Positions 2,545 to 17,267 of a stretch of 64,000 nucleotides of DNA are shown here, piece by piece (position 1 is the first letter of the stretch; each line of letters opens with the position of its first letter). The stretch is taken from NCBI GenBank assembly GCA_965198115.1, contig OZ240241.1:3776001-3840000 (forward strand), written 5' to 3'. Source of the DNA: Candidatus Latescibacterota bacterium (GTDB lineage Bacteria; Latescibacterota; UBA2968). A program made the position numbers and the translations under genes. Below the pieces are notes generated by a model. It did no database searches and was not told the DNA's origin. It saw nothing but the letters and a program-made list of their open reading frames with translations.

Positions 2545-5121
2545 ATGTCTACACTTTCTCGCTTCAATCGAAAGATCCTCCCGACCCTCATCGATGCGAC
2601 AAGAGGATCCCGTATCCTGGCGGACATCCGGGAGATCTGCAAGACGGACCGCTGGAACTCTTTCGACCGGTTTCACGACACCACCAACACCCTCGTCGAG
2701 CGATACAAGGCGGCTGGTGCCCGGGTGGAGGTCACTCCCATCAAGACCGGCGGCCACATCGGCACGGGGCGATGGGTCATTCGCGAGACCACGGACGTGG
2801 TCTCGGCAACCGCAGACGTCATCGCACCCGTTCGAAGACGTCTGCTCAGCTATGCCCGGAATCCGTGGTCCGTCATCCAGTGGAGCGCGGCCACACCCGC
2901 CGATGGATTGACGGGTCCGCTCGTCATCCTCGACACCCCCGAGGCCATTCAGAAAACCGAGCGATCGCTCGAGGGGTGCATCGTCCTCACACGTCACAAC
3001 GTGCGAAACATCGTCCGCGATCTGTCCGACCGCGGAGCCGCCGCCGTCATCACCGACATCGCCGTCGACGGTCACCCCGACGCCAAGGCCTGGACCAAGT
3101 TCGGCTGGGGCGCCGTCGGACTCGAGGCCAGCGCCGCCAGGCTGGTTGGGCTCGTCCTCTCCGCCAACGAAGGCAAAGCCCTCCGTGCGCTCGCAAAGAA
3201 GGGCGAGGTCCGGCTTCATCTTCGCGTTGACATCCGGCCGAACATCGGAACGCACGACCTCGTCAGCGGTATCGTCAAGGGGTCGGCTGATCCACAGGAC
3301 GAACTCTGGGTCCTCGCCCACAGCGCCGAACCGGGCGCTCACGACAACGCATCCGGCGTCGCGCTTTGTCTGGAAACCGCTCGCGTCCTCGAGTCTCTCA
3401 TTCGAAGAGGCAAGATCTCGCGACCCAAGCGAACCCTCCGCCTCCTTTCGGGATTCGAGTGCTACGGTTTCTTTCACTACCTCGAACACCAGAATCGCTA
3501 TCAGCCGCCCCTCGCGGGAATCTGCGTCGACACGGTCGGCGCCCGACCCGACGTCTGTGACGGCAGACTTTCGTGGCGAGCGACCGTTCCCTCATCCGCG
3601 GGGTTCGTCGACCAAGTCGGAGGCGCCATCATCCGCGCGACGCTTCGACAGACACGACCGGGATATCGTCTGGTCGAAGGCGACTTCATCCCCACGAGCG
3701 ACACCCTCATCGGCGACCCGCGTTACGGTTTCCCCTGTCCGTGGATCAACACGCACTTACGGCGTGGCGATCGTGCGTGGAAGGCCTATCACTCCTCGGC
3801 CGACACACCCGACGTCCTGAGTCCTGTCGGCCTACAGGCCTGCTCGGCGGCCGTCACTGGCTACCTCGCCTACCTCGCAGACGCCGGAACCGTCGACCTC
3901 CTCGAAATGGCGGCAGCCGAGACTGCACGTGCGAAATCAGCGCTTGCCCGAACCCGTTCGGTCGACAAGGCGGACTTCATCCGTCAGCGTCACGCCGAAT
4001 CGCTTAAACGTCTCGAGCGTTGGATATGGGAAGGTGACAGGAACGAAACGCTGCGTCGACTCGCCGAGGAGAGATCGGCCGTCGACGGATCAGGACCCCG
4101 CGCTCGGCCAAAAACTTTGCGAACACGCGAGGCCCGTGTGGTAGTCAGACGGACACGGGCCCTGACGCCCACTGCGGAGAATACGCCCGTTCCGATCAAG
4201 AACGAGATTGCCGGTGCACAGCTTTCTCCGTGGGCGCTCTTCTGGGCGGATGGCCGGCGAACGCTCGGAGAGATCAATCGTCTGGTGTCGATCGAAAGCG
4301 GGAAGGACGTCACCCTCGATCGGGTCGTCCGATACTTCCAGGGGCACGCCGAGCTCGGCTACGTCGATCTCATTCAGCCCGACCGAATCGTCTCACGGAA
4401 ATCCGTCGTTGGTGACTTCCGCCGACTCGGATTGCGACCCGGCATGAACGTGATGGTCCACAGCTCCCTGGCGTCCGTCGGTCACGTCGCCGGTGGGCCC
4501 GACACCCTCATCGACGCGATGCTCGACATCATCGGCCGCGATGGCACGTTGATGATGCCTTCGTTCAACCACCGGGCTGCGCACGTCTACAACCCGAAGA
4601 CTTCACCCACGACGAACGGCGCGCTGCCCGACGCCTTCTGGCGACGCCCGGACGTCGTCAGAAGCGATCACCCAACCCACGCCGTCGCCGCTTTCGGCCC
4701 CAAAGCCGAAGCCTTCTGTCGGGACCACGTCGCCCTCGGGCTCTGGACGGCCGACAGCCCCATCGCCCGTCTCGTCGCCGAGAACGGTCACGTCCTTTCC
4801 CTCGGCGTCACCCATACCTCCAGCACAGCCTACCACGTGGGCGAGCTCTCCGTCCCCTGCCGGTGCATCGACCCCTTCGGCGGCAAGGGCCGCATTGTCA
4901 CGATCGAAGGCGCCGTCAGGGCCGTACGCGGACTGGCGTGGCGGGACGACACCTGTCCCGTTTCGCCCGACCGTCTCAACGACACACTCGCGAAGCGGCA
5001 GCGCTCAGGTCGCATCGGCGAGGCGACGGCCACGCTCGTGCCCGCCCGTCTGATTGTGCAGGCAAGACGGCGGCACTTGCGTTCGGTCTGTCCCACCTGT
5101 CGGATCCGGCCGAGGGCATAG
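2545..5121 (+). CDS. Fusion: M28-type metallopeptidase (PA domain, DUF4910-like, winged HTH) + C-terminal AAC(3)/YokD-family N-acetyltransferase
   Basis: AHSAEPGAHDNASG, GFECYG and YHSSADTP peptidase motifs; from ~4385 VMVHSSLASVG, LMMPSF, RSDHPTHAVAAFG and STAYHVGE AAC(3) motifs. Confidence 0.85.
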   Translation: MSTLSRFNRKILPTLIDATRGSRILADIREICKTDRWNSFDRFHDTTNTLVERYKAAGARVEVTPIKTGGHIGTGRWVIRETTDVVSATADVIAPVRRRLLSYARNPWSVIQWSAATPADGLTGPLVILDTPEAIQKTERSLEGCIVLTRHNVRNIVRDLSDRGAAAVITDIAVDGHPDAKAWTKFGWGAVGLEASAARLVGLVLSANEGKALRALAKKGEVRLHLRVDIRPNIGTHDLVSGIVKGSADPQDELWVLAHSAEPGAHDNASGVALCLETARVLESLIRRGKISRPKRTLRLLSGFECYGFFHYLEHQNRYQPPLAGICVDTVGARPDVCDGRLSWRATVPSSAGFVDQVGGAIIRATLRQTRPGYRLVEGDFIPTSDTLIGDPRYGFPCPWINTHLRRGDRAWKAYHSSADTPDVLSPVGLQACSAAVTGYLAYLADAGTVDLLEMAAAETARAKSALARTRSVDKADFIRQRHAESLKRLERWIWEGDRNETLRRLAEERSAVDGSGPRARPKTLRTREARVVVRRTRALTPTAENTPVPIKNEIAGAQLSPWALFWADGRRTLGEINRLVSIESGKDVTLDRVVRYFQGHAELGYVDLIQPDRIVSRKSVVGDFRRLGLRPGMNVMVHSSLASVGHVAGGPDTLIDAMLDIIGRDGTLMMPSFNHRAAHVYNPKTSPTTNGALPDAFWRRPDVVRSDHPTHAVAAFGPKAEAFCRDHVALGLWTADSPIARLVAENGHVLSLGVTHTSSTAYHVGELSVPCRCIDPFGGKGRIVTIEGAVRAVRGLAWRDDTCPVSPDRLNDTLAKRQRSGRIGEATATLVPARLIVQARRRHLRSVCPTCRIRPRA

Positions 5122-6235: not shown

Positions 6236-8229
6236 ATGGCTGTGAACCGTTCTCCGTTCTCCGGATTATCGAATTTCTCGCGGGAATACTGCATTCTGCC
6301 TTCAAAAGTTTACCTCGTCGTCGCGCTTTCGACCGTGGCCGTTGCCTGCTTACAGGGCGATCCAGTCGACGACACCCTGGAGCAGAAGGTTCAGTCTGAA
6401 AAGCGATCGGTTCAGCCGCCGACTCGCGCTCCTCTGAGAATTGACCCGAGCATTCTCGAAGATCGAGATTTCAGGGAATCACCCGCGCTGGCGGGACGAG
6501 TGACGAAGGGGCGATTACCTCCTGTTGACGAAAGGTTGCCCGAGAATCCGCTGGTTGTCGTACCGATGGAGGAGATCGGACGATACGGCGGGACGATTCG
6601 GCGCGCGCTCGCAGGAGACATTGTTCAGACTGCAGGGGTGAACAAGACTCTCAGCGAGGGGCTGATGGGCTATCATCGCCCTTTGCCCGAGTCGATCGAA
6701 TACAACCTTGCGGAGAGCTACCATTACGAGGACGAAGGGCGGGTCGCGATCTTCAAGATCCGGAAGGGGATCAAGTGGTCGGATGGACATCCGTTTACGG
6801 TCGACGACATCCTGTTCTGGTATTACGACACGGAGGTCGACGACGACGCCCGCAACGATGCGGTGATGTCGTTGGTGTGGTTGGTGGGCGACGAGCCGAT
6901 CCAGATGGGAGGATCGACGACCACACCCTGCGCGTGTTCTCGCCGAAACCACTCGGACGCGTGCTCCAGGCCTTCTGCTCGAACGAGGTGGTGTTACCCA
7001 AGCACCACTTTTCGCGCTTTCACCCGCGCTACAATCCGGAAAGCGACTACGAAACGTTCAGGGACAGTACGACCAACGCCCAGCGAGTGCTGCAGCCGGG
7101 CGTTCCTCGCCTGTCCGCGTGGCACCCCGTCCGGTGGGAGCGAGGGCAGCGAGTCATCTACGAAAGGAACCCGTATTACTGGAAGGTCGACACGGAAGGG
7201 AATCAGCTGCCCTACGCGGACCGGATCGAGTTCAACGTGATCCAGGACTCTCAGGTGATTCTACTTAAGTTCATGAATGGAGAAATCGATCTGTTCGGGC
7301 GCTACGCCCAGACGAGCATGTATCCCACCCTTAAGGCGGGCGAGCGGAACGGGAAGTTCAAAGTCCGCGTCACGGGGCCCGAGCGAGGGTTGACGCTTTA
7401 CCTGAACTGGGATGCGCCGAACCCGGCCTTGCGGGAGGCTTTCCGGGAACGGAAGGTGCGGATGGCGCTCTCGCACGCGATCAATCGCGAGGAGCTGAAC
7501 CAGATCATCTTCCACGGTCTGCTTGACCCGTCCGGCTACGCCCTCGCACGTCAAAGTCCTTACTTCGACGAGCGCCTCTACAAGCTTTATACCGAGTTCG
7601 ATCCGGACCTCTCTCGCAGGTTGTTGGACGAAGCCGGTTTCGTCGACCGCGATGGGGACGGCACGCGAGAACTGAAGGACGGAACGCCTTTCTCGCTGAG
7701 CATCGATGTTGTAATCACACCGTCGATGTGGGTGGACGCTGTCGAGCTGATTGTCTCGCAGTGGGCCGAAGCCGGTGTCGAAGCGCACATCAACGCGACG
7801 TTGAGGGACATCCTATGGCCACGCAGGACGAATGGTGAGTTCGACATTCACGTCTGGGGCCTGGAGGGACCGGCCGATCCGCTCGCGCGCCTGAACGACT
7901 GGGCGATTATGGCCCCGACCGTCCCGTTCTGGCATCGGAATGCGTTCAAGGAGGCGCAACCCTGGCTGCGTGAAGCGACGGAGCACGTCTTCGGGTCCCT
8001 CACGACGATCGACTCAGTTGTGCTCCGCGGACATATGGAACGAGTGAGAGATCTTCACACCGAGAACATCGCGGCGATCACGGTTGGCGCGAACTACCGT
8101 GTTTGGGGCGCGGGCACGCGGCTGGGAAACGTGCCTTACGAGAACACGGCCGCGACAGTGTTCCAGGGATGGGGACGGCCGGTTTTTCACGAGCAGATTT
8201 ACATAAAGGCAGTGAACCGTGAGCCGTGA
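6236..8229 (+). pseudogene. ABC transporter substrate-binding lipoprotein (family 5), frameshifted near 6908
   Basis: N-half (lipobox AVAC, LPPVDERLPENP, KWSDGHPFTVDD) in the 6197 frame; C-half (ERNPYYWKVD, NQLPYAD) in the 6775 frame; one base missing at ATGGGAGG. Confidence 0.8.
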
Positions 8230-8301
8230 AGCGTTGGCCGGAGAGACGGCTCTACCCCAACGCACAGTGTTCACAGTTTAGGGATAACGGACAACGGAAA
8301 C

Positions 8302-8946
8302 GTGTCTTCCGACAACATCATCGAAGGTATCCCCGAGGCGGCGCCGGACAAAATGCCGGTTCGTGGCGACGGGGTGTCGCTTCAGGTCAACGAGATTTTC
8401 TACTCGATCGAGGGCGAGGGCGCGCGGGTCGGTCAGCCCACGACGTTCGTGCGATTGTCGAAGTGTAACCTGGCCTGTTTCTTCTGCGACACGGAGTTCG
8501 ATAGCTATACGGTGATGAGTGTCGCGGAAGTTGTGGAGGAGGTCGAGGTTCACGCAGCGAGATGGGTGAGTCTGACGGGTGGGGAGCCTCTCGGTCAGGA
8601 CATCCGGCCGCTTTGTGAGACACTGAGGAGCGCGGGCTATCGCCTTCACATCGAAACGAACGGGGTCACGAGGCCGGATCTAGAACTGTTTGACCTGATC
8701 GAATTCTGGACCGTGAGTCCAAAGCGTCGCCGAGTGATCGAGGGGTTCGTGCGGATCGACGAGCTGAAATACATCGTCGGAAAGACCTTCCGTGAAGATG
8801 ACGTTGAAACGGACCTGACAGGGGTGGTGTATCTGCAGCCGGAGTCGAGCAAACCCGAATACATTCACAAGACGCTAGAAATCCTGACACGTCATCCCGA
8901 CTGGCGATTGTCCTGTAGGATCCACAGGATGCTGAACTTGCCGTAA
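8302..8946 (+). CDS. queE: 7-carboxy-7-deazaguanine synthase (radical SAM)
   Basis: EIFYSIEGEG, FVRLSKCNLACFFCDT, LTGGEP, IETNG, TVSPK and WRLS motifs. Confidence 0.92.
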   Translation: MSSDNIIEGIPEAAPDKMPVRGDGVSLQVNEIFYSIEGEGARVGQPTTFVRLSKCNLACFFCDTEFDSYTVMSVAEVVEEVEVHAARWVSLTGGEPLGQDIRPLCETLRSAGYRLHIETNGVTRPDLELFDLIEFWTVSPKRRRVIEGFVRIDELKYIVGKTFREDDVETDLTGVVYLQPESSKPEYIHKTLEILTRHPDWRLSCRIHRMLNLP

Positions 8947-9959
8947 GTCTTTTGCCGAGCAGGCGTGCAGCGAGCAGGCGTGGCAACGACATCATCAAAG
9001 GGCCAACGGGCCTTAGCCCACACCACGGGGCTGGGTTTGATGATCGGAGTCTCGGGGCCCAAGCGGTGTCACCCCGGTACGCTTCTTGGCCGGGGCCCAT
9101 TCTACTGTGGAGATAACGTTGTCACTAGTGTCACGTCCCAGGAATAACTAGAAAAACATTCGATTCTGTCGTATGGTTCCTCAAGCACTCATTCTTGGGA
9201 GGAACCGATGGCTAGAGGTCGTCCGTTACAGCCACTGAACATCAGTGATGAGGTCCACGATCAACTCGAGTCATTGTCTCGTTCGCGTAGCATGTCTCAC
9301 GCTTTGGTGCGTCGCGCGAAGATCGTCTTGATGAGCGATTGCGGTCTGACCAATCAGGAGATCGCGGAACGAGTCGGGTTGTCCGGAGCGTCTGTCGGCA
9401 AGTGGCGTCGTCGCTTCTGCGAGCAAGGCTTGATGGGACTGTATGACGAATTGCGTCCTGGAGGGCCACGGTCGGTCAGCGACGAAGAGATCTCCTCCCT
9501 CATCTACAAGACGCTCAAGAAGCAACCGAAGGGTGCCACCCACTGGGACCTGTCGTTCGATGGCCGACGAGACGGGGCTCTCCAAGTCCTCGGTTCAACG
9601 TGTATGGAAAGCTTTTGGACTGCAACCGCATCGACAGAAGCACTTCAAACTGTCGAACGATCCCTTCTTCGTCGAGAAAGTCAGGGATATCGTCGGTCTA
9701 TACCTGAACCCACCGGACAACGCGATGGTGCTCTGTGTAGACGAGAAGAGCCAGATTCAAGCACTCGAACGGACACAACCGATTCTTCCTTTGGGTCTCG
9801 GATACGTCGAGGGCGTCACTCACAGCTATATCCGGAACGGCACGACCACCCTCTTTGCAGCGCTCAACATCGCATCCGGCAAAGTTCTGACTCAGTGCAA
9901 GCCCAGACACCGCAACAAAGAGTTCCTTCAGTTCCTCAAGCACATCGACAAGAACGTCC

Positions 9960-11333
9960 GAGCTATAATCAAAAGGTGTGGAAAAAGAGAAAGGGCGACC
10001 CTACCCTTCCCGTGAGATAGTTGATTCACACAAAACCGGGTGAGAGGCCCGGTTGGGAAGGAGGATCGCCGTGAAGGAACATACGCATAGAGCCCCATTG
10101 AAGTCCATGCCGACGTGGGAGACGGTTGACGATTGGATCCGTGAAGAGATCCAGGGCCGGTTCCAGTCCATTCTGGAGGAGGAGGCGACCGCGTTCTTGG
10201 GCCGGTCGTGGTATGAGCGCCGAGCCGAGGTCGATAGCTCCACGGGCTACAGGAACGGCTACGGCAAGCCCCGGCGTCTCTCGACGAGCTGCGGAACGAT
10301 CAAGGTCCGGCGTCCCCGGGTTCGTGGTCTGGAAGAGCGGTTTGAAAGCCGCATCCTCCCCCTGTTCGCCCGGAGAACCAGGGCCATTGGAGATCTGCTT
10401 CCCGACCTTTATCTCCACGGTCTCTCCCAGGGCGACTTCGAGTTGTCTTTGCGTGCGCTGCTCGGTGATGGCGCGCCGCTTTCGCCGACCTCGATCGCTC
10501 GTCTTCGAGGGAAGTGGGAGGTCGACTTCCAGGACTGGAAAGAAAGGCGTCTGGATAATCGCGAACTGGTCTACGCCTGGGCTGATGGCATCTACGTCAA
10601 AGCCGGGCTCGAGCGCGAGAAGGCGTGTCTGCTGGTCGTGATCGGCGCGATGAGCGACGGCAGCAAGGAGATCCTGGCGATAGAACCCGGTTATCGAGAG
10701 TCTACAGAATCCTGGCTCACGGTGCTCCGGGATCTCCGGGATCGCGGGCTCGAACATCCTGTCCTGATCGCCGCGGACGGGAATATGGGCATCTGGGCGG
10801 CCGTTGATCAGGTCTGGCCAGAGAGCCGGCAACAACGGTGCTGGAACCACAAGATCCTCAACGTGCTCGACAAGGTCGCCAAGCGTGCACAGGCTGAAGC
10901 CCGCGCACTGCTCGTCCAGATCCCCTATGCCGGCACGAAAAAGGAGGCCGAGAAGCTCCGGAAACGCTTTGCCGCACGGTATCGCTCACAGTTCCCTGCC
11001 GCCGTGGAGACGCTCGAAAGAGACTGGGATCGGATGGTCACGTTCTACGACTTCCCGAAGGAACACTGGAAACACCTGAGAACCACGAACGTCGTCGAGA
11101 GCCCCTTTGCTTCCGTTCGGCTTCGCACAAACGCCGCCAGGCGATTCAAGAAAGTCAGGAACGCCACGGCTCTCATCTGGCGTACGCTCAAGGTCGCAGA
11201 GAGCCGATTCAGGAAACTCACCGCGCCACACTTGCTACAACAAGTCTACGATCAGAAACACTCAACCGAACCGCAGGTCGAAGCCGGGAAGATGGCCGCC
11301 TGATTTCTTTTACACACCTATTGACCTGAGCTC
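9960..11333 (+). mobile_element. IS256-family element type A
   Basis: Ends GAGCTATAATCAAAAGGTGTG / CACACCTATTGACCTGAGCTC; 8-bp DR GAACGTCC (9952-9959, 11334-11341). Confidence 0.93.
10071..11303 (+). CDS. IS256-family (Mutator-like) transposase
   Basis: YRNGY, WADG, AADG, QQRCWNHK and LRTTNVVES motifs; GGAGGA RBS before GTG. Confidence 0.93.
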   Translation: MKEHTHRAPLKSMPTWETVDDWIREEIQGRFQSILEEEATAFLGRSWYERRAEVDSSTGYRNGYGKPRRLSTSCGTIKVRRPRVRGLEERFESRILPLFARRTRAIGDLLPDLYLHGLSQGDFELSLRALLGDGAPLSPTSIARLRGKWEVDFQDWKERRLDNRELVYAWADGIYVKAGLEREKACLLVVIGAMSDGSKEILAIEPGYRESTESWLTVLRDLRDRGLEHPVLIAADGNMGIWAAVDQVWPESRQQRCWNHKILNVLDKVAKRAQAEARALLVQIPYAGTKKEAEKLRKRFAARYRSQFPAAVETLERDWDRMVTFYDFPKEHWKHLRTTNVVESPFASVRLRTNAARRFKKVRNATALIWRTLKVAESRFRKLTAPHLLQQVYDQKHSTEPQVEAGKMAA

Positions 11334-11697
11334 GAACGTCCCAAAGGATCTCGACATCCATCTGGTCGTCGATAACTACGGCACTCACAAGCACCAGAAC
11401 GTCAAACGTTGGCTCACCTCACGTAAAAGATACCACGTGCACTACACACCAACGTATGCCTCCTGGCTAAACCAGGTAGAGATCTGGTTCGGCATCATCA
11501 CACAAAGAGCAATCCGACGAGGAACCTTTCGGAACGTCAAGGACCTGATCGCCTGCATCAAGAAATTCACTGATCACTACAACGAGAATTCTACACCCTT
11601 CGTCTGGACCGCCACGGCAGATTCAATCCTCGAGAAAGTCCATAAACTTTTGAAGCTTATACGCGGGACGTGACACTAGTGGATGCGCGAAGAAAAT

Positions 11698-11728
11698 GGA
11701 TCCCGGCCTGAGACCTGCCGGGATGACA
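11698..11728. repeat. REP-like palindrome GGATCCCGGC-N9-GCCGGGATGAC
   Basis: GC-rich hairpin ending in GATGAC, resembling RAYT-associated REP sequences. Confidence 0.5.
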
Positions 11729-11811
11729 GTACGCTTCGCGTGCTGAGCCGGGTTGCATCTGAGGGCCAACGGCCCGTGCGGCCACTTTTCATTGTCCATT
11801 TGCATTCTGCG

Positions 11812-12924
11812 ATGATCGAATCTCTCCCAACACCACACGGTGAATTGCGGTTGCCAGCATTTCTGCCCGACGCGACGCGTGGCGCAGTGCGTGCAGTCGA
11901 TATGTGCGACGTTCGGAATGCAGGGATCGATGCGCTGATGGTGAACACGCTCCATCTGTCGTCACAGCCGGGAACCTCGGTGGTGAAGGAGGCGGGTGGC
12001 ATTCATCGTTTTTCGGGTTGGGATGGGCCGGTTGCATCCGACTCGGGTGGGTTCCAGGTGCTGTCGTTGGCGGCAGGGGGACCGAAGGGTGTCAGCGTGA
12101 GCAAGAGGGGCCTGTCCTACAAACCGGAAGGTCAGACGAAGCGACGCCAGCTGACGCCGGAGAAGTGCATCCAGTACCAGGTTCAATTGGGTGCGGACAT
12201 CCTGTTCTGCCTGGACCACTGTCCACCGGCTAGCACAGATGCTGCCACCCACCGTGAGAGTGTCGATCACACGGTGGCGTGGGCTGAGCAATGCAAGACG
12301 GCGTTCGAAGAGCGATATCCGAAATCCGATTTCAGATCTCCGATCTCCGATCGTCATTCCGGATCCAGGATCCCGGATCTCCGCCCCCTTCTATTTGCAG
12401 TCATTCAAGGCGGTGAGGACAGGGCCCTTCGTGCCGAATGCGCAGAACGACTCCAAGAGATCGGTTTCGATGGCTACGGCTTCGGTGGATGGCCGGTGGC
12501 GGACGACGGCGGGCTGGTCGATAGCGTGGGTCAGGTAGCAGACCTGTTGCCCGATGATCTTCCCCTGCACGGACTGGGCATCGGGAAGCCAGAGAACGTT
12601 GTGGCCGCCTGGCGTCTGGGATACCAAACGTTCGATTGTACCCTGCCTACGCGAGATGCAAGGCAGGGCCGTCTCTACGCTTCCACGTCGGATTCGTTCG
12701 ACGGCGACTACGACTACGTCCACATCGAGAAGGAGCGGTTCTCACGCGATCACCGGCCGATCGATGACGGATGTGATTGTACCACCTGCCTGCGTTACAC
12801 GAGGGCGTACCTCCATCATCTCTTTTCGGTCGGAGAACCGGTTGGTGCCCGGTTGGCGACGGTCCACAACCTTCGCTTTTATTCCCGGTTGATGGGTCTG
12901 TTGAACGCGGAATCAGGCGTTTGA
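11812..12924 (+). CDS. tgt: tRNA-guanine transglycosylase family protein (atypical substrate pocket)
   Basis: NTLHL, SDSGGFQ, LDHCP, VIQGG, FDCTLPTR and Zn site CDCTTC...HN. Confidence 0.9.
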   Translation: MIESLPTPHGELRLPAFLPDATRGAVRAVDMCDVRNAGIDALMVNTLHLSSQPGTSVVKEAGGIHRFSGWDGPVASDSGGFQVLSLAAGGPKGVSVSKRGLSYKPEGQTKRRQLTPEKCIQYQVQLGADILFCLDHCPPASTDAATHRESVDHTVAWAEQCKTAFEERYPKSDFRSPISDRHSGSRIPDLRPLLFAVIQGGEDRALRAECAERLQEIGFDGYGFGGWPVADDGGLVDSVGQVADLLPDDLPLHGLGIGKPENVVAAWRLGYQTFDCTLPTRDARQGRLYASTSDSFDGDYDYVHIEKERFSRDHRPIDDGCDCTTCLRYTRAYLHHLFSVGEPVGARLATVHNLRFYSRLMGLLNAESGV

Positions 12925-13727
12925 GTTCACGGCCGTCCGTCGAGATGATTGTCACCGCGATCCGGCGGACACCCAAGTATGCGCCGCTCTGCGCATCGGT
13001 CATCGAAAGAGCGGCTGTTCAGGCGGTCGGCCGGTATCGTACACGAAAGGAAGCCGAGAAAGCCGCACGACGACGACTGCATCAGATCTACGGAGCCTAC
13101 CTGAGCGGCACGTGGCTCACCGTTCTTCAGCAGGCGCTCGGCGGTGTCGATGAGGGGACAGTGGAGGATTCCCGTGCGTTCTGTCGTCCATTGCTCGACC
13201 TTCACGCGTCGACGCGTGAACGCACGGACGATCTCGACCGCCTGTTTGTGGAGATTTTCACTCGGACGGGTCACCCTGAGCGCGTCCTGGATCTTGCGTG
13301 TGGATTGAGTCCGTTGACCATTCCGTGGATGGATCCGCTCGAATGCTGCGATTACACGGCGGTCGATCTGCACGAGGGACTAATAGAGGCACTCAACGCG
13401 TTTTTCAGCGCATTCTCGCTGAAGGGTGAAGCTGTGTGTGGCGATGTTCTCGAATGGTCCAGGTTCGAGGCGGATGTCGTCTTCTTGTTGAAGGTCCTGC
13501 CGTGCCTGGCTCGACAGAAGAAGGATGCCGACCTGCTGACGATCGCCCGCATCCCATCACAATGGGTGGTCGCCTCCTATCCCTCGCGCTCGCTCAGCGG
13601 TCGCAATGTAGGAATGGTCTCACACCACGAAACACGACTGCGCGAAATTGCAGAGCTTAGTGGGAGGAAGGTATTTCCGGTTCAGGGATTCTCCGAGGCC
13701 GTCTACGTATTGGAAAAATTGGCGTAA
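12921..13727 (+). CDS. ArmA/Rmt (FmrO)-family 16S rRNA guanine(1405)-N7 methyltransferase homologue
   Basis: PKY, LHQIYGAY, HASTRER, LDLACGLSPL, LKVLPCL and SYPSRSLSGRNVGM motifs; TTG start overlaps the tgt stop (TTGA). Confidence 0.88.
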   Translation: MSSRPSVEMIVTAIRRTPKYAPLCASVIERAAVQAVGRYRTRKEAEKAARRRLHQIYGAYLSGTWLTVLQQALGGVDEGTVEDSRAFCRPLLDLHASTRERTDDLDRLFVEIFTRTGHPERVLDLACGLSPLTIPWMDPLECCDYTAVDLHEGLIEALNAFFSAFSLKGEAVCGDVLEWSRFEADVVFLLKVLPCLARQKKDADLLTIARIPSQWVVASYPSRSLSGRNVGMVSHHETRLREIAELSGRKVFPVQGFSEAVYVLEKLA

Positions 13728-13777
13728 GGTGTTGATTTCAGGCGCGTTGTTGTGTCTGGCCAGGCTGGGCTTTTCCC

Positions 13778-13806
13778 TTGACTCTTTTCGGGCGAACCAA
13801 TAGATT
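13778..13806 (+). promoter_or_regulatory. sigma70 promoter, probably for the thrS operon, now separated from it by IS256
   Basis: TTGACT-N17-TAGATT. Confidence 0.6.
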
Positions 13807-13858
13807 ATGCAGACTGTGGCTTAAAAGACGTTCACTCTTCCCCGGAGGCATCTCGGGT

Positions 13859-15246
13859 GGTCAAGTCCCATAGTCCGTTGAAACTCATCGGGCTCCGTGG
13901 TATTCATGCTCTCTGCCGAGCATCTTGATTGTCGCCGAGATTCAGGTTGTTTTTCAGTGCTTGCCTGAGCAGCGGGAGGTGTTTGTATCCGCTCACGCGT
14001 CGCAGGCGTGGTTCGATGTCGAGGAGTGCGGCCGCGACCCATCTGTGTCGCTGAGGAGAGTTGTTCCAGCGGTTGACCTTCCGTATCAGGTTGCCGGTCA
14101 TGCTGTTGAGCGCCTCGATGCAATTGGTGGTTCGGAAGCTTCGCTTCAAGAACGGGAGCATCCCCAGCCGGTGGAGGGTCAGGGTTTCCTCCAGTCCTTC
14201 CTCGAGGCTTGCCACGGCAGACTGATTCATCAGCTTGAGTTCGGGTTTGAGTGATTCGAGTGCGGCCTTTGCCTCCTCGTAGGTGTCGCAGTCATAGGCT
14301 TTCTGAAGTTTCCGTCGAACTCTTGGACGTTCTGCCTCCGGGAGGTAGCTGACGACGTTCTCGCGCTTGTGCCACTGACAGCGATGCACGCACACATCCC
14401 CTTTGAGGGCTTTGGTGACGGCACTGCGGAGTCCCTTTGAGCCGTCCAGCACAACGAGAAGGCCCTGGTCGTAGCACAGGCCTCTCCGGATGAGATCCTG
14501 GATCAGCTGACGGCAGATCCGTTCGTTCTCCGTCGCCGATTCGACGAAGCCCAGGGGGATCTTCTGGCCGTCCGTCGTGACGCCCGGAGCGATCACGATC
14601 TCTTCGTCGGCAAAGCTCTTTCCGTCGATGAACAGGGCGACCAAGTCGTAGTCGTCGAGCGGTCGTTCCTGGAACTGCTTCAGCTTCTTTGCGGTGGCTT
14701 TGATGAACCGTCGCGAGACGGAGGATGCCGAGATTCCGAACGCTTCGGGTACCGACTCTGCACAGGCTCTGTAGTTGCGACAGGAGATTCCCTTGAGCAC
14801 ACGAAGCAGCAGCTTCTCATCCATCGCTCTGGGCCTCTGCATCCCCCGGTATGCGGCCAGAGAAACCTCCGTATCGGACTCGACGTCGCGCACACGGGGA
14901 ACGGCCACCGGCAGCTTCTGGTCCATCAGATACACGGACCCTTTCTGGCTTCCCCATCGACGATGCGACTGCTCTGAACCCTTACGCGCATACCGAACGC
15001 CTGCGAGCTGCTCCACCTCCTGCTGGAGCACGTCGGCAACGGCCTCCAGACCCAGCGGAATCAGCGCCCGGATCACCGATAAACGCGTCTCCAAATCCAT
15101 AACGTCTGACCCAACCTTGACTTCGCCATCCCCTGCAAATAGCTTCTCCATCGTGGGCTCCTTTCTTACGGGTACACGCTCTCACACGCGTACCCACAAC
15201 GTAAGTTTGGAGCCCTTTAAGTTTCAACTAGGATAGGGACCTCACC
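13859..15246 (-). mobile_element. IS256-family element type B, copy 1 (1388 bp)
   Basis: Imperfect terminal IRs; flanks TCTCGGGT / TCTCGGGA; near-identical to 22001-23388. Confidence 0.93.
13904..15151 (-). CDS. IS256-family transposase
   Basis: FIDGK, VLDG, HRCQWHK and FRTTNCIE motifs. Confidence 0.93.
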   Translation of the reverse strand: MEKLFAGDGEVKVGSDVMDLETRLSVIRALIPLGLEAVADVLQQEVEQLAGVRYARKGSEQSHRRWGSQKGSVYLMDQKLPVAVPRVRDVESDTEVSLAAYRGMQRPRAMDEKLLLRVLKGISCRNYRACAESVPEAFGISASSVSRRFIKATAKKLKQFQERPLDDYDLVALFIDGKSFADEEIVIAPGVTTDGQKIPLGFVESATENERICRQLIQDLIRRGLCYDQGLLVVLDGSKGLRSAVTKALKGDVCVHRCQWHKRENVVSYLPEAERPRVRRKLQKAYDCDTYEEAKAALESLKPELKLMNQSAVASLEEGLEETLTLHRLGMLPFLKRSFRTTNCIEALNSMTGNLIRKVNRWNNSPQRHRWVAAALLDIEPRLRRVSGYKHLPLLRQALKNNLNLGDNQDARQRA

Positions 15247-15332
15247 TCTCGGGACGGACATCTGCCTTACCCCATTTGCAGGATTCTCGATCAGGACGCG
15301 CAGATGGTGGATGGCGCGTCCATTCGTGTTTT

Positions 15333-17267
15333 ATGGCCAACCGCGAGATCACTGTTACACTGCCCGATGGGTCAGAAAAGGCCTACGAGGCGGGAACGAC
15401 GATCCAGCAGGTCGCCGAGTCTATCGGGGAAGGATTGGCACGCGCCGCGTTGGCGGGGAAGGTCGACAACCGCGTCGTCGACCTAAGCCACGCGCTCGAC
15501 GAAAACGCCGACGTTTCGATATTGACGTTTCGGGACGATGGCGGGAAAGAGGTTTACTGGCACAGCACCGCGCACGTGATGGCGCAGGCCGTGCAGGATC
15601 TGTTCCCAGACGCGAAGGTGACGATCGGACCGCCGATCGACAGCGGCTTCTACTACGATTTCGACGTCCCCGAGCCGTTTACGCCCGACGATCTGGAACG
15701 GATCGAAGGACGAATGGCGGAGATCGCGAAGGAAGATCAGCCGTTCGAGCGGGACGAGCTGCCGCGCGACGAAGCCTACAGGATGTTCGACGAGATGGGC
15801 GAGCCCTACAAGCTCGAGATTCTCGACGACATCGAGTCGGACGAAACGATCAGCATCTATCGGAACGTGGACAAGTTCTGCGATCTCTGTCGTGGCCCTC
15901 ACGTTTCAGGCACAGGGAAGATCAAGGCCGTCAAGTTGTTGAGCTCGTCGGGCGCCTACTGGCGCGGGGACGAGCGGAACAAGATGCTCCAGCGGATCTA
16001 CGGTATCTCGTTCCCCGACAAGAAAGGCCTGAAAGCGTATCTCGATCTACTGGAGGAGGCGAAGCGCCGGGATCATCGGACGATCGGGACACAGCTGGAT
16101 CTGTATTCGATCAACGACAACGTCGGGCCGGGGTTGGCGCTGTGGCATCCCAAGGGGATGCGGATCCGGCGCGAAATCGAGGACTTCTGGTATAAATCGC
16201 ATTTCAGTGGGGGCTACGAGCTCGTCGGCTCGCCTCACATCGGGCGGTCTTCACTGTGGGAGACGAGCGGTCACTTAGATTTCTACTCAGAGGGGATGTA
16301 CTCCCCGATGGATATCGACGGGCAGAGTTACTACGCCAAGCCGATGAACTGCCCGTTCCATTCGATGATTTACAAGAGCCGGCTCCGCAGCTACCGTGAG
16401 CTTCCGTTCCGGTGGGCGGAGATGGGGACTGTCTACCGTTACGAGGCGTCGGGCACGTTGCACGGGCTGATGAGGGTCCGAGGGTTCACGCAGGACGACG
16501 CCCACATTTTCTGCCGCCCCGACCAGGTCGAAGACGAAATCACGCACGTCATCAATTTCTCGCTGAACGTTTTGCAAGCGTTCGGCTTCGAAGACTATGC
16601 ACTCTACGTCAGTACGCGGCCAGAAAAGTACGTGGGGGACCCGGACGCGTGGGATCGGGCGACCGACGCCTTGAGGCGCACGGCGGATGAACGGGGATTG
16701 GTTTACGAGGTCGACGAGGGCGGAGGCGCGTTTTACGGGCCCAAGATCGACGTGAAAATCCGAGACGCTCTGAGCCGAGAATGGCAGTGCACGACGATTC
16801 AATTCGACTTCAACCTGCCCGAACGGTTCGACCTGAGTTTCATCGGGCAGGACGGCAAGCATCACCGGCCGTTTATGGTCCACCGGACCCTGCTCGGGTC
16901 GATGGAACGATTTTTCGGTACCCTGATCGAGCACTACGCGGGGAACTTTCCTGTCTGGTTGGCGCCGGTCCAGGTGGCGGTCCTGCCGATTTCGGATCCC
17001 TTCCTCGACTACGCTCAGCAGGTGGGACAGGATCTATCGGCGGCGGGTATCAGGATCGATGTCGACGACCAGGACGCCAAGCTGGGTTACAAGATCCGCG
17101 AAGCGGAAACACAGAAAATCCCCTACATGGTGATCGTGGGACAGGCCGAACAGGAGGCGGGTGAAGTCGCGGTTCGCCGCCACGGCGAGGGGGATCTTGG
17201 GAAGATGGCATTGGTAGATCTCATTGAACGGATACAACGTGAAATCGAGTCGAAGCAGCCACACTGA
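15333..17267 (+). CDS. thrS: Threonine--tRNA ligase
   Basis: TGS domain, HSTAH, DLCRGPH, KPMNCP, GLMRVRGF and AFYGPKID motifs. Confidence 0.98.
   Translation: MANREITVTLPDGSEKAYEAGTTIQQVAESIGEGLARAALAGKVDNRVVDLSHALDENADVSILTFRDDGGKEVYWHSTAHVMAQAVQDLFPDAKVTIGPPIDSGFYYDFDVPEPFTPDDLERIEGRMAEIAKEDQPFERDELPRDEAYRMFDEMGEPYKLEILDDIESDETISIYRNVDKFCDLCRGPHVSGTGKIKAVKLLSSSGAYWRGDERNKMLQRIYGISFPDKKGLKAYLDLLEEAKRRDHRTIGTQLDLYSINDNVGPGLALWHPKGMRIRREIEDFWYKSHFSGGYELVGSPHIGRSSLWETSGHLDFYSEGMYSPMDIDGQSYYAKPMNCPFHSMIYKSRLRSYRELPFRWAEMGTVYRYEASGTLHGLMRVRGFTQDDAHIFCRPDQVEDEITHVINFSLNVLQAFGFEDYALYVSTRPEKYVGDPDAWDRATDALRRTADERGLVYEVDEGGGAFYGPKIDVKIRDALSREWQCTTIQFDFNLPERFDLSFIGQDGKHHRPFMVHRTLLGSMERFFGTLIEHYAGNFPVWLAPVQVAVLPISDPFLDYAQQVGQDLSAAGIRIDVDDQDAKLGYKIREAETQKIPYMVIVGQAEQEAGEVAVRRHGEGDLGKMALVDLIERIQREIESKQPH

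Follow-up and report, generated by a model that had tools for sequence, protein, structure and literature searches.

Enzymes of the TGT family act on tRNA and DNA. Two of its paralogues have acquired new nucleic-acid targets, namely archaeal TgtA (tRNA G15) and DpdA (insertion of 7-deazaguanine into DNA), and their genes are clustered with genes of preQ synthesis. A second enzyme group of interest here acts on 16S rRNA: according to the accessible part of PMC13602947, Rmt methyltransferases act on G1405, RsmI and RsmH on C1402 and RsmF on C1407. A tgt gene beside clinical rmt genes has been recorded as genetic context, with no function given in the accessible text of these reports (PMC9311965, PMC8446631, PMC3904158). 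A search of the full-text literature, with subscription papers and supplements outside its scope, returned neither a function for tgt beside rmt nor an rRNA transglycosylase. In this work, a chromosomal pair of such genes was analyzed in a stretch of 64,000 nucleotides from Candidatus Latescibacterota bacterium (GCA_965198115.1, contig OZ240241.1, positions 3,776,001 to 3,840,000), hereafter called the window. The pair consists of the following genes:

11812..12924, plus strand: gene of a TGT-family enzyme, here called TGT2 (ATG at 11812); open reading frame (ORF) with a Pfam TGT match
12921..13727, plus strand: gene of an S-adenosylmethionine (SAM) methyltransferase of the Rmt/ArmA/FmrO family, here called Rmt; ORF with a Pfam FmrO match

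It was found that tgt2 and rmt form a conserved and widespread two-gene module, and that the window locus is its Latescibacterota form, which lacks rsmI and stands behind a housekeeping queE gene. An undescribed RNA-modification module had been proposed from the window sequence alone (the original prediction), and this is still the best reading of the locus. As to its action, the chances seem to us evenly balanced that TGT2 puts 7-aminomethyl-7-deazaguanine (preQ1) into helix 44 of 16S rRNA, likely at a G1405 that is flipped or pre-methylated by Rmt.

The tgt2-rmt pair across genomes

Four samples with a total of 1164 genomes were searched (61 Latescibacterota, 301 Chloroflexota, 401 Bacillota and 401 Actinomycetota), and all 90 Rmt-bearing genomes among them carried a TGT partner. 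In Latescibacterota, rmt was present in 18 of the 61 genomes and TGT2 in the same 18. The two genes adjoined in 17 of these loci, the 18th being cut by contig ends, and the pair lay between queE and thrS in 16 of the 18 carriers. Among the Chloroflexota, 61 of 301 genomes contained rmt; a full TGT2 was found in 58 of them and the other three had a TGT2 beside rmt, which was cut by a contig end in two cases and had decayed along with rmt in one. All eight rmt-bearing Bacillota (of 401) had tgt2 and rsmI, and the three rmt-bearing Actinomycetota (of 401) had TGT2 in two cases and an archaeal-type TGT in one.

A scan of GTDB with a TGT2 alignment gave at least 590 confirmed rows, and the best 80 loci were kept. 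They span Nitrospirota, Hydrogenedentota, Acidobacteriota, Ignavibacteria, Bacteroidota, Armatimonadota, Bacillota, Planctomycetota, Chloroflexota, Alphaproteobacteria and further groups. The rmt gene was present in 75 of these 80 loci and adjacent to tgt2 in 70; of the remaining five, one is cut off by the end of its contig and its rmt lies on a different contig, one was a contig of 1.3 kb and three came from genomes in which no rmt was found. The linkage, for which a neighborhood survey had been suggested as a check, is thus conserved. Recurrent partners in the best 80 loci were limited to rmt, rsm and que genes, namely rsmI in 53 loci (directly upstream in 44), an rsmF-like gene in nine and rsmH in four, and queA was not a recurrent neighbor. 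The usual third gene of the module is rsmI. When 50 TGT2 genomes were searched whole, rsmI was found in 43, mostly as the operon copy alone, and a further TGT-family gene in 49. Starting from rmt instead, TGT2 was detected in 61 of the 80 best-scoring metagenome loci and in 26 of the 30 where the flank was sufficient.

Single-ORF fusions of TGT2 and Rmt were found twice (L078 and L303), in one planctomycete and in one Chloroflexota genome, and three genomes keep the two genes unlinked. In a Chloroflexota metagenome-assembled genome (MAG; L305, G647:C209) both genes are broken by several stops and frameshifts, which means either joint decay or poor assembly. The fusions, the joint decay and the genomes keeping both genes apart argue for a linkage that reflects function and not hitch-hiking. 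TGT2, Rmt and RsmI also show correlated pairwise distances (rho 0.65-0.74), although shared ancestry alone can give such values. These data bear on the simplest alternative, according to which rmt simply confers intrinsic resistance to aminoglycosides, with tgt2, rsmI and queE as mere passengers. The canonical residues of Rmt and its spread on plasmids without a partner would agree with this explanation, but the two genes persist even where they are unlinked, have decayed together and have been fused twice, TGT2 has invariant residues of its own and the window site bears no sign of mobility. We consider it highly improbable, and the least probable of the explanations discussed here.

A separate pairing was found at L265:4506-6512, L266:3281-5281 and L270:1340-3973, where a short archaeal-type TGT gene (E 1.5e-44 to P. 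horikoshii TgtA) immediately precedes a far-diverged Rmt-like gene; in one case queC stands in front of the pair. It appears to be a second, independent TGT-methylase pairing in bacteria.

TGT2 and Rmt compared with described enzymes

The TGT2 of the window scored 308 bits with Pfam TGT and 293 bits with TIGR00430 (cut-off 306.75). The same genome contains a canonical Tgt (G000:C1:7274844), which is 31% identical to TGT2 and scored 450 bits with TIGR00430. In a tree of 62 rows, 39 TGT2 sequences formed one clade apart from 22 canonical Tgt, with one far-diverged row aside. The support of this clade by the Shimodaira-Hasegawa-like approximate likelihood ratio test (SH-aLRT) was 95, and 100 in a second tree, and its stem amounted to about one change per column; all trees in this work are quick searches with SH-aLRT support and no bootstrap. 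A borderline TGT2 match, G617, was placed by the tree with canonical Tgt and left out of the count. TGT2 is an additional paralogue with a clade to itself, and the separate canonical copy rules out the possibility, raised together with the original prediction, that it is the sole housekeeping Tgt. It also differs from canonical Tgt in being tied to rmt and rsmI and not to queA, with the exception of locus L099.

Like bacterial Tgt (Zymomonas mobilis, PDB 1ozm/1enu; TIGR00430), TGT2 is a TIM-barrel enzyme with a zinc site, 370 aa in length, and it has no extra RNA-binding domain. A structure model (predicted local distance difference test, pLDDT, 90) had the TGT fold, with a template modeling (TM) score of 0.87 and a root-mean-square deviation of 1.9 to the Z. 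mobilis enzyme. The residues D280, D102 and C158 and the clamp S103/D156/Q203/G230 (Z. mobilis numbers) are kept in 39/39 TGT2; in the window enzyme, D77/S78/D135/C137/Q199/G226/D275 and the zinc site C321/C323/C326/H352 are intact. Unlike the Z. mobilis enzyme, TGT2 has V45D, L231W, A232P, Y258H, M260L and two insertions. The subfamily marks are Asp at V45 and Pro at A232 (39/39 TGT2; D20 and P228 in the window enzyme), Trp at L231 (38/39; W227) and the loss of the equivalent of E235, a residue present in 22/22 canonical Tgt. In the Z. mobilis enzyme, the bond between L231 and A232 presents either its NH to guanine N7 via water or its carbonyl to preQ1, backed by E235 (PMC3660597, accessible part). 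Since a Pro at A232 has no NH, the pocket of TGT2 would be fixed in the preQ1-facing form.

The described paralogues are more distant. The window TGT2 scored 25 vs 200 bits for DpdA, and neither dpdB-K genes nor a long C-terminal part was seen; for archaeal TgtA the values were 66.9 vs 350 bits, and the neighbors of TGT2 are rRNA methylases. A phage collection contained 20 TGT records, and all of the 15 listed were at canonical-Tgt identity. The zinc motif was found to be incomplete in the housekeeping Tgt of the window genome and in the TGT2 of L114.

The window Rmt scored 132.3 bits with FmrO (Pfam cut-off 27), matched Sgm over the full length (E 9e-31) and stayed under the cut-off of the NCBIfam Rmt equivalog (206.5 vs 250). 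It resembles ArmA, RmtA-H and Sgm (FmrO; NF000466; PDB 3lcu, 6pqb, 8ghu) in its full-length match and in the docking, flipping and catalytic residues of RmtC; unlike these enzymes, it has 30-35% identity to them, is chromosomal, is vertically kept beside thrS and has a TGT partner. The residue roles in 30S docking and G1405 placement were taken from the accessible part of the RmtC study (10.1101/2023.03.13.532395), according to which the enzyme flips G1405 18 Å out of the helix. The window Rmt keeps RmtC K20, Y21, R39, Y40, K43, K47, R50, H54, Y60, S107, D160, K204, R211, S239, R241 and M245, so that the 30S-docking residues K20, Y21, R50 and H54 and the loop residues R241 and M245 are all identical. 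Of the five residues of the SAM/G1405 site, Y60, S107, D160 and K204 are identical as well, and K236 is replaced by Arg, as in RmtB2/D2/F1/G. The window methyltransferase looks like a true G1405 enzyme, which we predict as likely from these residues.

A His in the motif GMVSHH had been taken as a hint of a changed target or activity. The His is indeed present, but a target switch did not find support, as the residues for docking and G1405 placement are kept and the His is private to the window genome: Tyr occupies this position, that of RmtC Y249, in the same-genus genome as well as in 101 of the 116 rows of the alignment, and the accessible RmtC text does not single it out (10.1101/2023.03.13.532395). 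In comparison with the same-genus genome, the ratio of nonsynonymous to synonymous substitution rates (dN/dS) was ~0.12 for tgt2 and ~0.18 for rmt; both genes are intact and evolve under purifying selection.

A second Rmt paralogue was found in 20 of the 80 GTDB loci (L061, L069, L076, L088, L100 and others). It has His or Tyr at the position of RmtC T207, its loop is mostly without the GM motif and it forms a separate tree group; it possibly has another target. This paralogue, together with the far-diverged Rmt-like genes paired with archaeal-type TGT and queC, would fit a module in which the native Rmt mainly methylates the product of TGT2 (either the amine of preQ1 inserted into some RNA outside helix 44 or the free base) and acts on G1405 as a side activity. 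We regard this as very unlikely in view of the main Rmt, in which the 30S-docking surface of RmtC is retained in full together with its active site, and of the clinical enzymes annotated as G1405 methylases, which nest among operon genes.

The best plasmid matches of TGT2 adjoin rmtD2, rmtG, rmtB2 (separated by one gene) and rmtE2 (5' part absent). The tgt genes of clinical plasmids are 41-46% identical to the window TGT2 vs 30-36% for canonical Tgt; the tgt-like gene beside rmtD and rmtG on which the original prediction drew is indeed present, and at rmtD2 and rmtG it belongs to the TGT2 subfamily. The surroundings of rmtG include rsmH and a piece of rsmI. Thus, the cassettes tgt-rmtD, rsmH-tgt-rmtG-(rsmI piece), tgt-X-rmtB2 and tgt-rmtE2 have the same TGT2 subfamily and gene order as the module; unlike the window locus, they are captured pieces between IS91/IS26. 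Their TGT2s group with those of Lachnospiraceae/Oscillospiraceae (support 98), and the Latescibacterota lineage was rejected as the donor of rmtD and rmtG for this reason. A quick tree, a phylogeny also foreseen in the original prediction, was built from 59 Rmt rows. In it, the acquired ArmA, RmtB2, RmtC, RmtD2, RmtF1 and RmtG nest among operon-borne genes: ArmA stands with the same gut Bacillota (95), RmtC with Chlorobiota/Ignavibacteria (97) and RmtB2/D2/F1/G stand together (95). Two actinomycete enzymes are near a Chloroflexota one (80), and the window enzyme has no close neighbor outside its own genus. These results suggest that clinical rmt genes were captured from tgt2-rmt operons. In one record each of armA, rmtC and rmtF1 that was checked, no trace of TGT2 was found within 4 kb. 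The gene clusters of aminoglycoside producers are not known to contain TGT2. Whatever the target of TGT2, such an origin would answer the old question of the source of the pan-aminoglycoside ArmA/Rmt genes and of their role in bacteria making no aminoglycoside, and TGT2 could serve as a marker for their reservoir. A Klebsiella plasmid was also noted to have a piece of a second rmt-like frame immediately upstream of its rmtF1 (L128:3367-3855).

Incoming base and target RNA

The incoming base of TGT2 is likely preQ1. This is assumed because an operon of Solirubrobacteraceae (L074) has the order queE-queD-queC-rsmI-tgt2-rmt-queF and holds the whole preQ1 route, queE stands beside the pair in Latescibacterota, the pocket is of the C158/V233 type and one member is located beside queA. 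In addition, the QueC-less carriers that were checked have the salvage transporter YhhQ (4/5) and QueA (5/5). At L110, rmt is followed by a queD-like gene, which had no NCBIfam match at 1e-15.

Helix 44 of 16S rRNA is proposed as the target because the recurrent partners work within six bases there, RmtC flips G1405 and the window Rmt has the corresponding residues. According to the proposed mechanism, Rmt is predicted to dock on the 30S subunit, where it would flip G1405 and methylate it, after which TGT2 would exchange this base, or a neighboring helix-44 guanine, for preQ1. The A232P change would remove the NH that binds guanine N7 and leave the preQ1-binding carbonyl, which would suit a 7-substituted leaving base (7-methylguanine, m7G). 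The product would bear a stable, positively charged 7-substituent instead of labile m7G. Alternatively, the exchange may come first, and Rmt or the second Rmt paralogue may then methylate the preQ1 amine; the order of the steps is speculative. Resistance to aminoglycosides would be a side effect, which came into use when plasmids captured rmt alone. The full form of this proposal is more tentative, and we rate it at somewhat below an even chance: TGT2 may be the first rRNA-guanine transglycosylase, which places preQ1 or N-methyl-preQ1 at 16S G1405 with flipping and priming by Rmt, and the ArmA/Rmt resistance enzymes, perhaps also those of the Sgm type of producers, may be halves of this housekeeping system, captured without the partner. 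If it is true, base exchange in rRNA is a new kind of rRNA modification, located where aminoglycosides bind and codons are read, and the mark at the decoding site occurs in about a fifth of Chloroflexota and in representatives of many other phyla. It could have been misinterpreted so far, because the preQ1 nucleoside shares the formula of dimethylguanosine.

Several results weigh against modification of helix 44. No experiment has shown 7-deazaguanine in rRNA, and in 30 rRNA loci the helix-44 sequence did not differ between carriers and non-carriers. The gene queC was found in only 27 of the 50 TGT2 genomes, rsmI was not found in the window genome, and in two planctomycete MAGs TGT2 was present and no rmt was found. 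About 15 plasmid records contain TGT2 vs 1571 with an Rmt match, and Rmt works alone in the clinic. The sampled genomes are related and not independent, their four centers were chosen as pair carriers, and each set of 80 loci comprises the top-scoring rows of a longer scan. Finally, at L099:5038-7168 a genome of 0.9 Mb has a TGT2-type enzyme as its sole TGT, with queA directly after it and no rmt. Together, the 119 relatives closest to this enzyme make up a clade that lies within TGT2 and has D20/W227/P228, and four of them are named Patescibacteria by their sources; some members have the pocket changes C158F/Q203H, and the gene context of the clade is known from L099 itself. Probably, a TGT2-type pocket can put preQ1 into tRNA G34 from plain guanine. 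Because of this clade, the m7G-first step is weakened and tRNA stays open as a target.

The L099 member supports the main alternative explanation, in which TGT2 inserts preQ1 into tRNA (at G34 of a subset, or at another guanine) and its linkage to Rmt is maintained because it retunes decoding on m7G1405 ribosomes. TGT2 has no extra RNA-binding domain and retains R286 and R289 as well as a basic residue at K52, which is consistent with this; we take these residues to be those that read the U after tRNA G34. A source for the roles of U33/U35-binding residues was not found in the accessible literature. In Vibrio cholerae, tgt is reportedly linked to aminoglycoside tolerance. On the other hand, a canonical Tgt or second TGT-family gene in 49 of the 50 TGT2 genomes means that tRNA G34 is already served, queA does not recur beside tgt2 in the best 80 GTDB loci, and the fusions with Rmt as well as the RsmI, RsmH and RsmF neighbors point to 16S rRNA. 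We consider modification of tRNA possible but doubtful.

It is also conceivable that TGT2 is an eraser or repair enzyme, which removes m7G1405 (or its ring-opened form) and restores guanine, so that the methyl mark becomes reversible. The mostly one-way dependence, with Rmt working alone on plasmids, and the 23 of 50 TGT2 genomes in which QueC was not found would fit this function, and A232P would disfavor plain guanine as the leaving base. The same change, however, disfavors guanine as the incoming base, and the presence of preQ1 genes including queF within one operon and of queA after one member speaks for preQ1. Such a function is unlikely in our opinion.

A separate observation concerns the aminoglycoside pocket of helix 44: the pair A1409-U1491 was found instead of C1409-G1491 in L294 (G000:C1:2712030) and in 28 of 29 other Latescibacterota 16S loci, alike in module carriers and non-carriers.

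Layout of the window locus

The other features of the locus are as follows:

8302..8946, plus strand: queE-like radical SAM gene (7-carboxy-7-deazaguanine (CDG) synthase, preQ0/preQ1 pathway); ORF and profile matches
9128..11676, plus strand: insertion sequence (IS) of the IS630 family, interrupted and frameshifted; terminal inverted repeats, TA duplication 9126-9127 / 11677-11678
9960..11333, plus strand: IS256-family element inside the IS630; transposase 10053-11303, 8-bp direct repeat 9952-9959 / 11334-11341
13754..13770, plus strand: terminator-like hairpin with a T run, directly after rmt; pattern match only
13859..15240 (about), minus strand: second IS256-family element, unrelated to the nested one, between rmt and thrS; transposase 13904-15151
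15276..17267, plus strand: thrS, first gene of thrS-infC-rpmI-rplT, context outside the module; name from translation

Once the IS630::IS256 nest is removed, queE, tgt2 and rmt are co-oriented, as had been predicted, with a gap of 314 bp and no overlap between queE and tgt2. The predicted overlap of tgt2 and rmt was confirmed as well: the TGA stop of tgt2 and the TTG start of rmt share TTGA at 12921-12924, and an alternative ATG of rmt is located at 12945. The IS630 target was a short dispersed repeat, the halves of which lie near 9067-9101 and 11692-11740.

The IS elements are late insertions, since near-full copies are numerous in the genome (at least 25 of the left part of IS630, 133 of the nested IS256 and 35 of the second IS256) and relatives have the same gene run without them. 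The pair occupies the same site, without ISs, in 16 of the 18 carriers, and this fixed position before thrS agrees with the claim of a native chromosomal pair. Mobilization of the module by the flanking ISs, which had also been suggested, is not supported: a test for a mobile resistance cassette gave IS630 and an unrelated IS256 as flanks, with no matching pair, and the module is in single copy. The closed window genome (8.4 Mb) has a very high IS load. Contigs from three sequencing runs cover the genes, none spans the stretch, and the read-contig joints across the IS nest derive from other copies of the repeat. Seven terminator-like hairpins were found in the region vs 4.7 expected by chance, and a promoter scan gave two sites vs 1.5 expected, including one weak junction site at the right end of IS630. 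An Rfam search of positions 8000-15400 at E 0.1 gave no match.

The queE gene encodes the CxxxCxxC motif, and its five best matches were QueE models, all under cut-offs. It is the sole copy in the genome (dN/dS ~0.08 vs the same-genus genome), is present in 60 of 61 related genomes and adjoins the pair in 11 of the 80 GTDB loci, 10 of which are Latescibacterota. Thus, queE is a single housekeeping gene and a lineage-specific neighbor, and not a fixed member of the block as originally assumed; the real unit is tgt-rmt. The genes folE2, queD, queC, queF and queA are present elsewhere in the window genome, which has two queC, two queA and folE2 in place of folE. The second queA was considered as a partner and rejected, as it is located far away with a short-chain dehydrogenase/reductase gene; the second queC was rejected because the number of queC is independent of the module. 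Two tandem QueF-like genes were found at L040:1492-2200 (G000:C1 about 1585500-1586300), the second of which lacks the Cys of the CP motif of the first. In addition, window positions 2545-5121, 3 kb upstream of the module, encode an 858-aa protein in which an M28 peptidase-like part is fused to an acetyltransferase domain of the AAC(3) family; it is not a recurrent neighbor in relatives.

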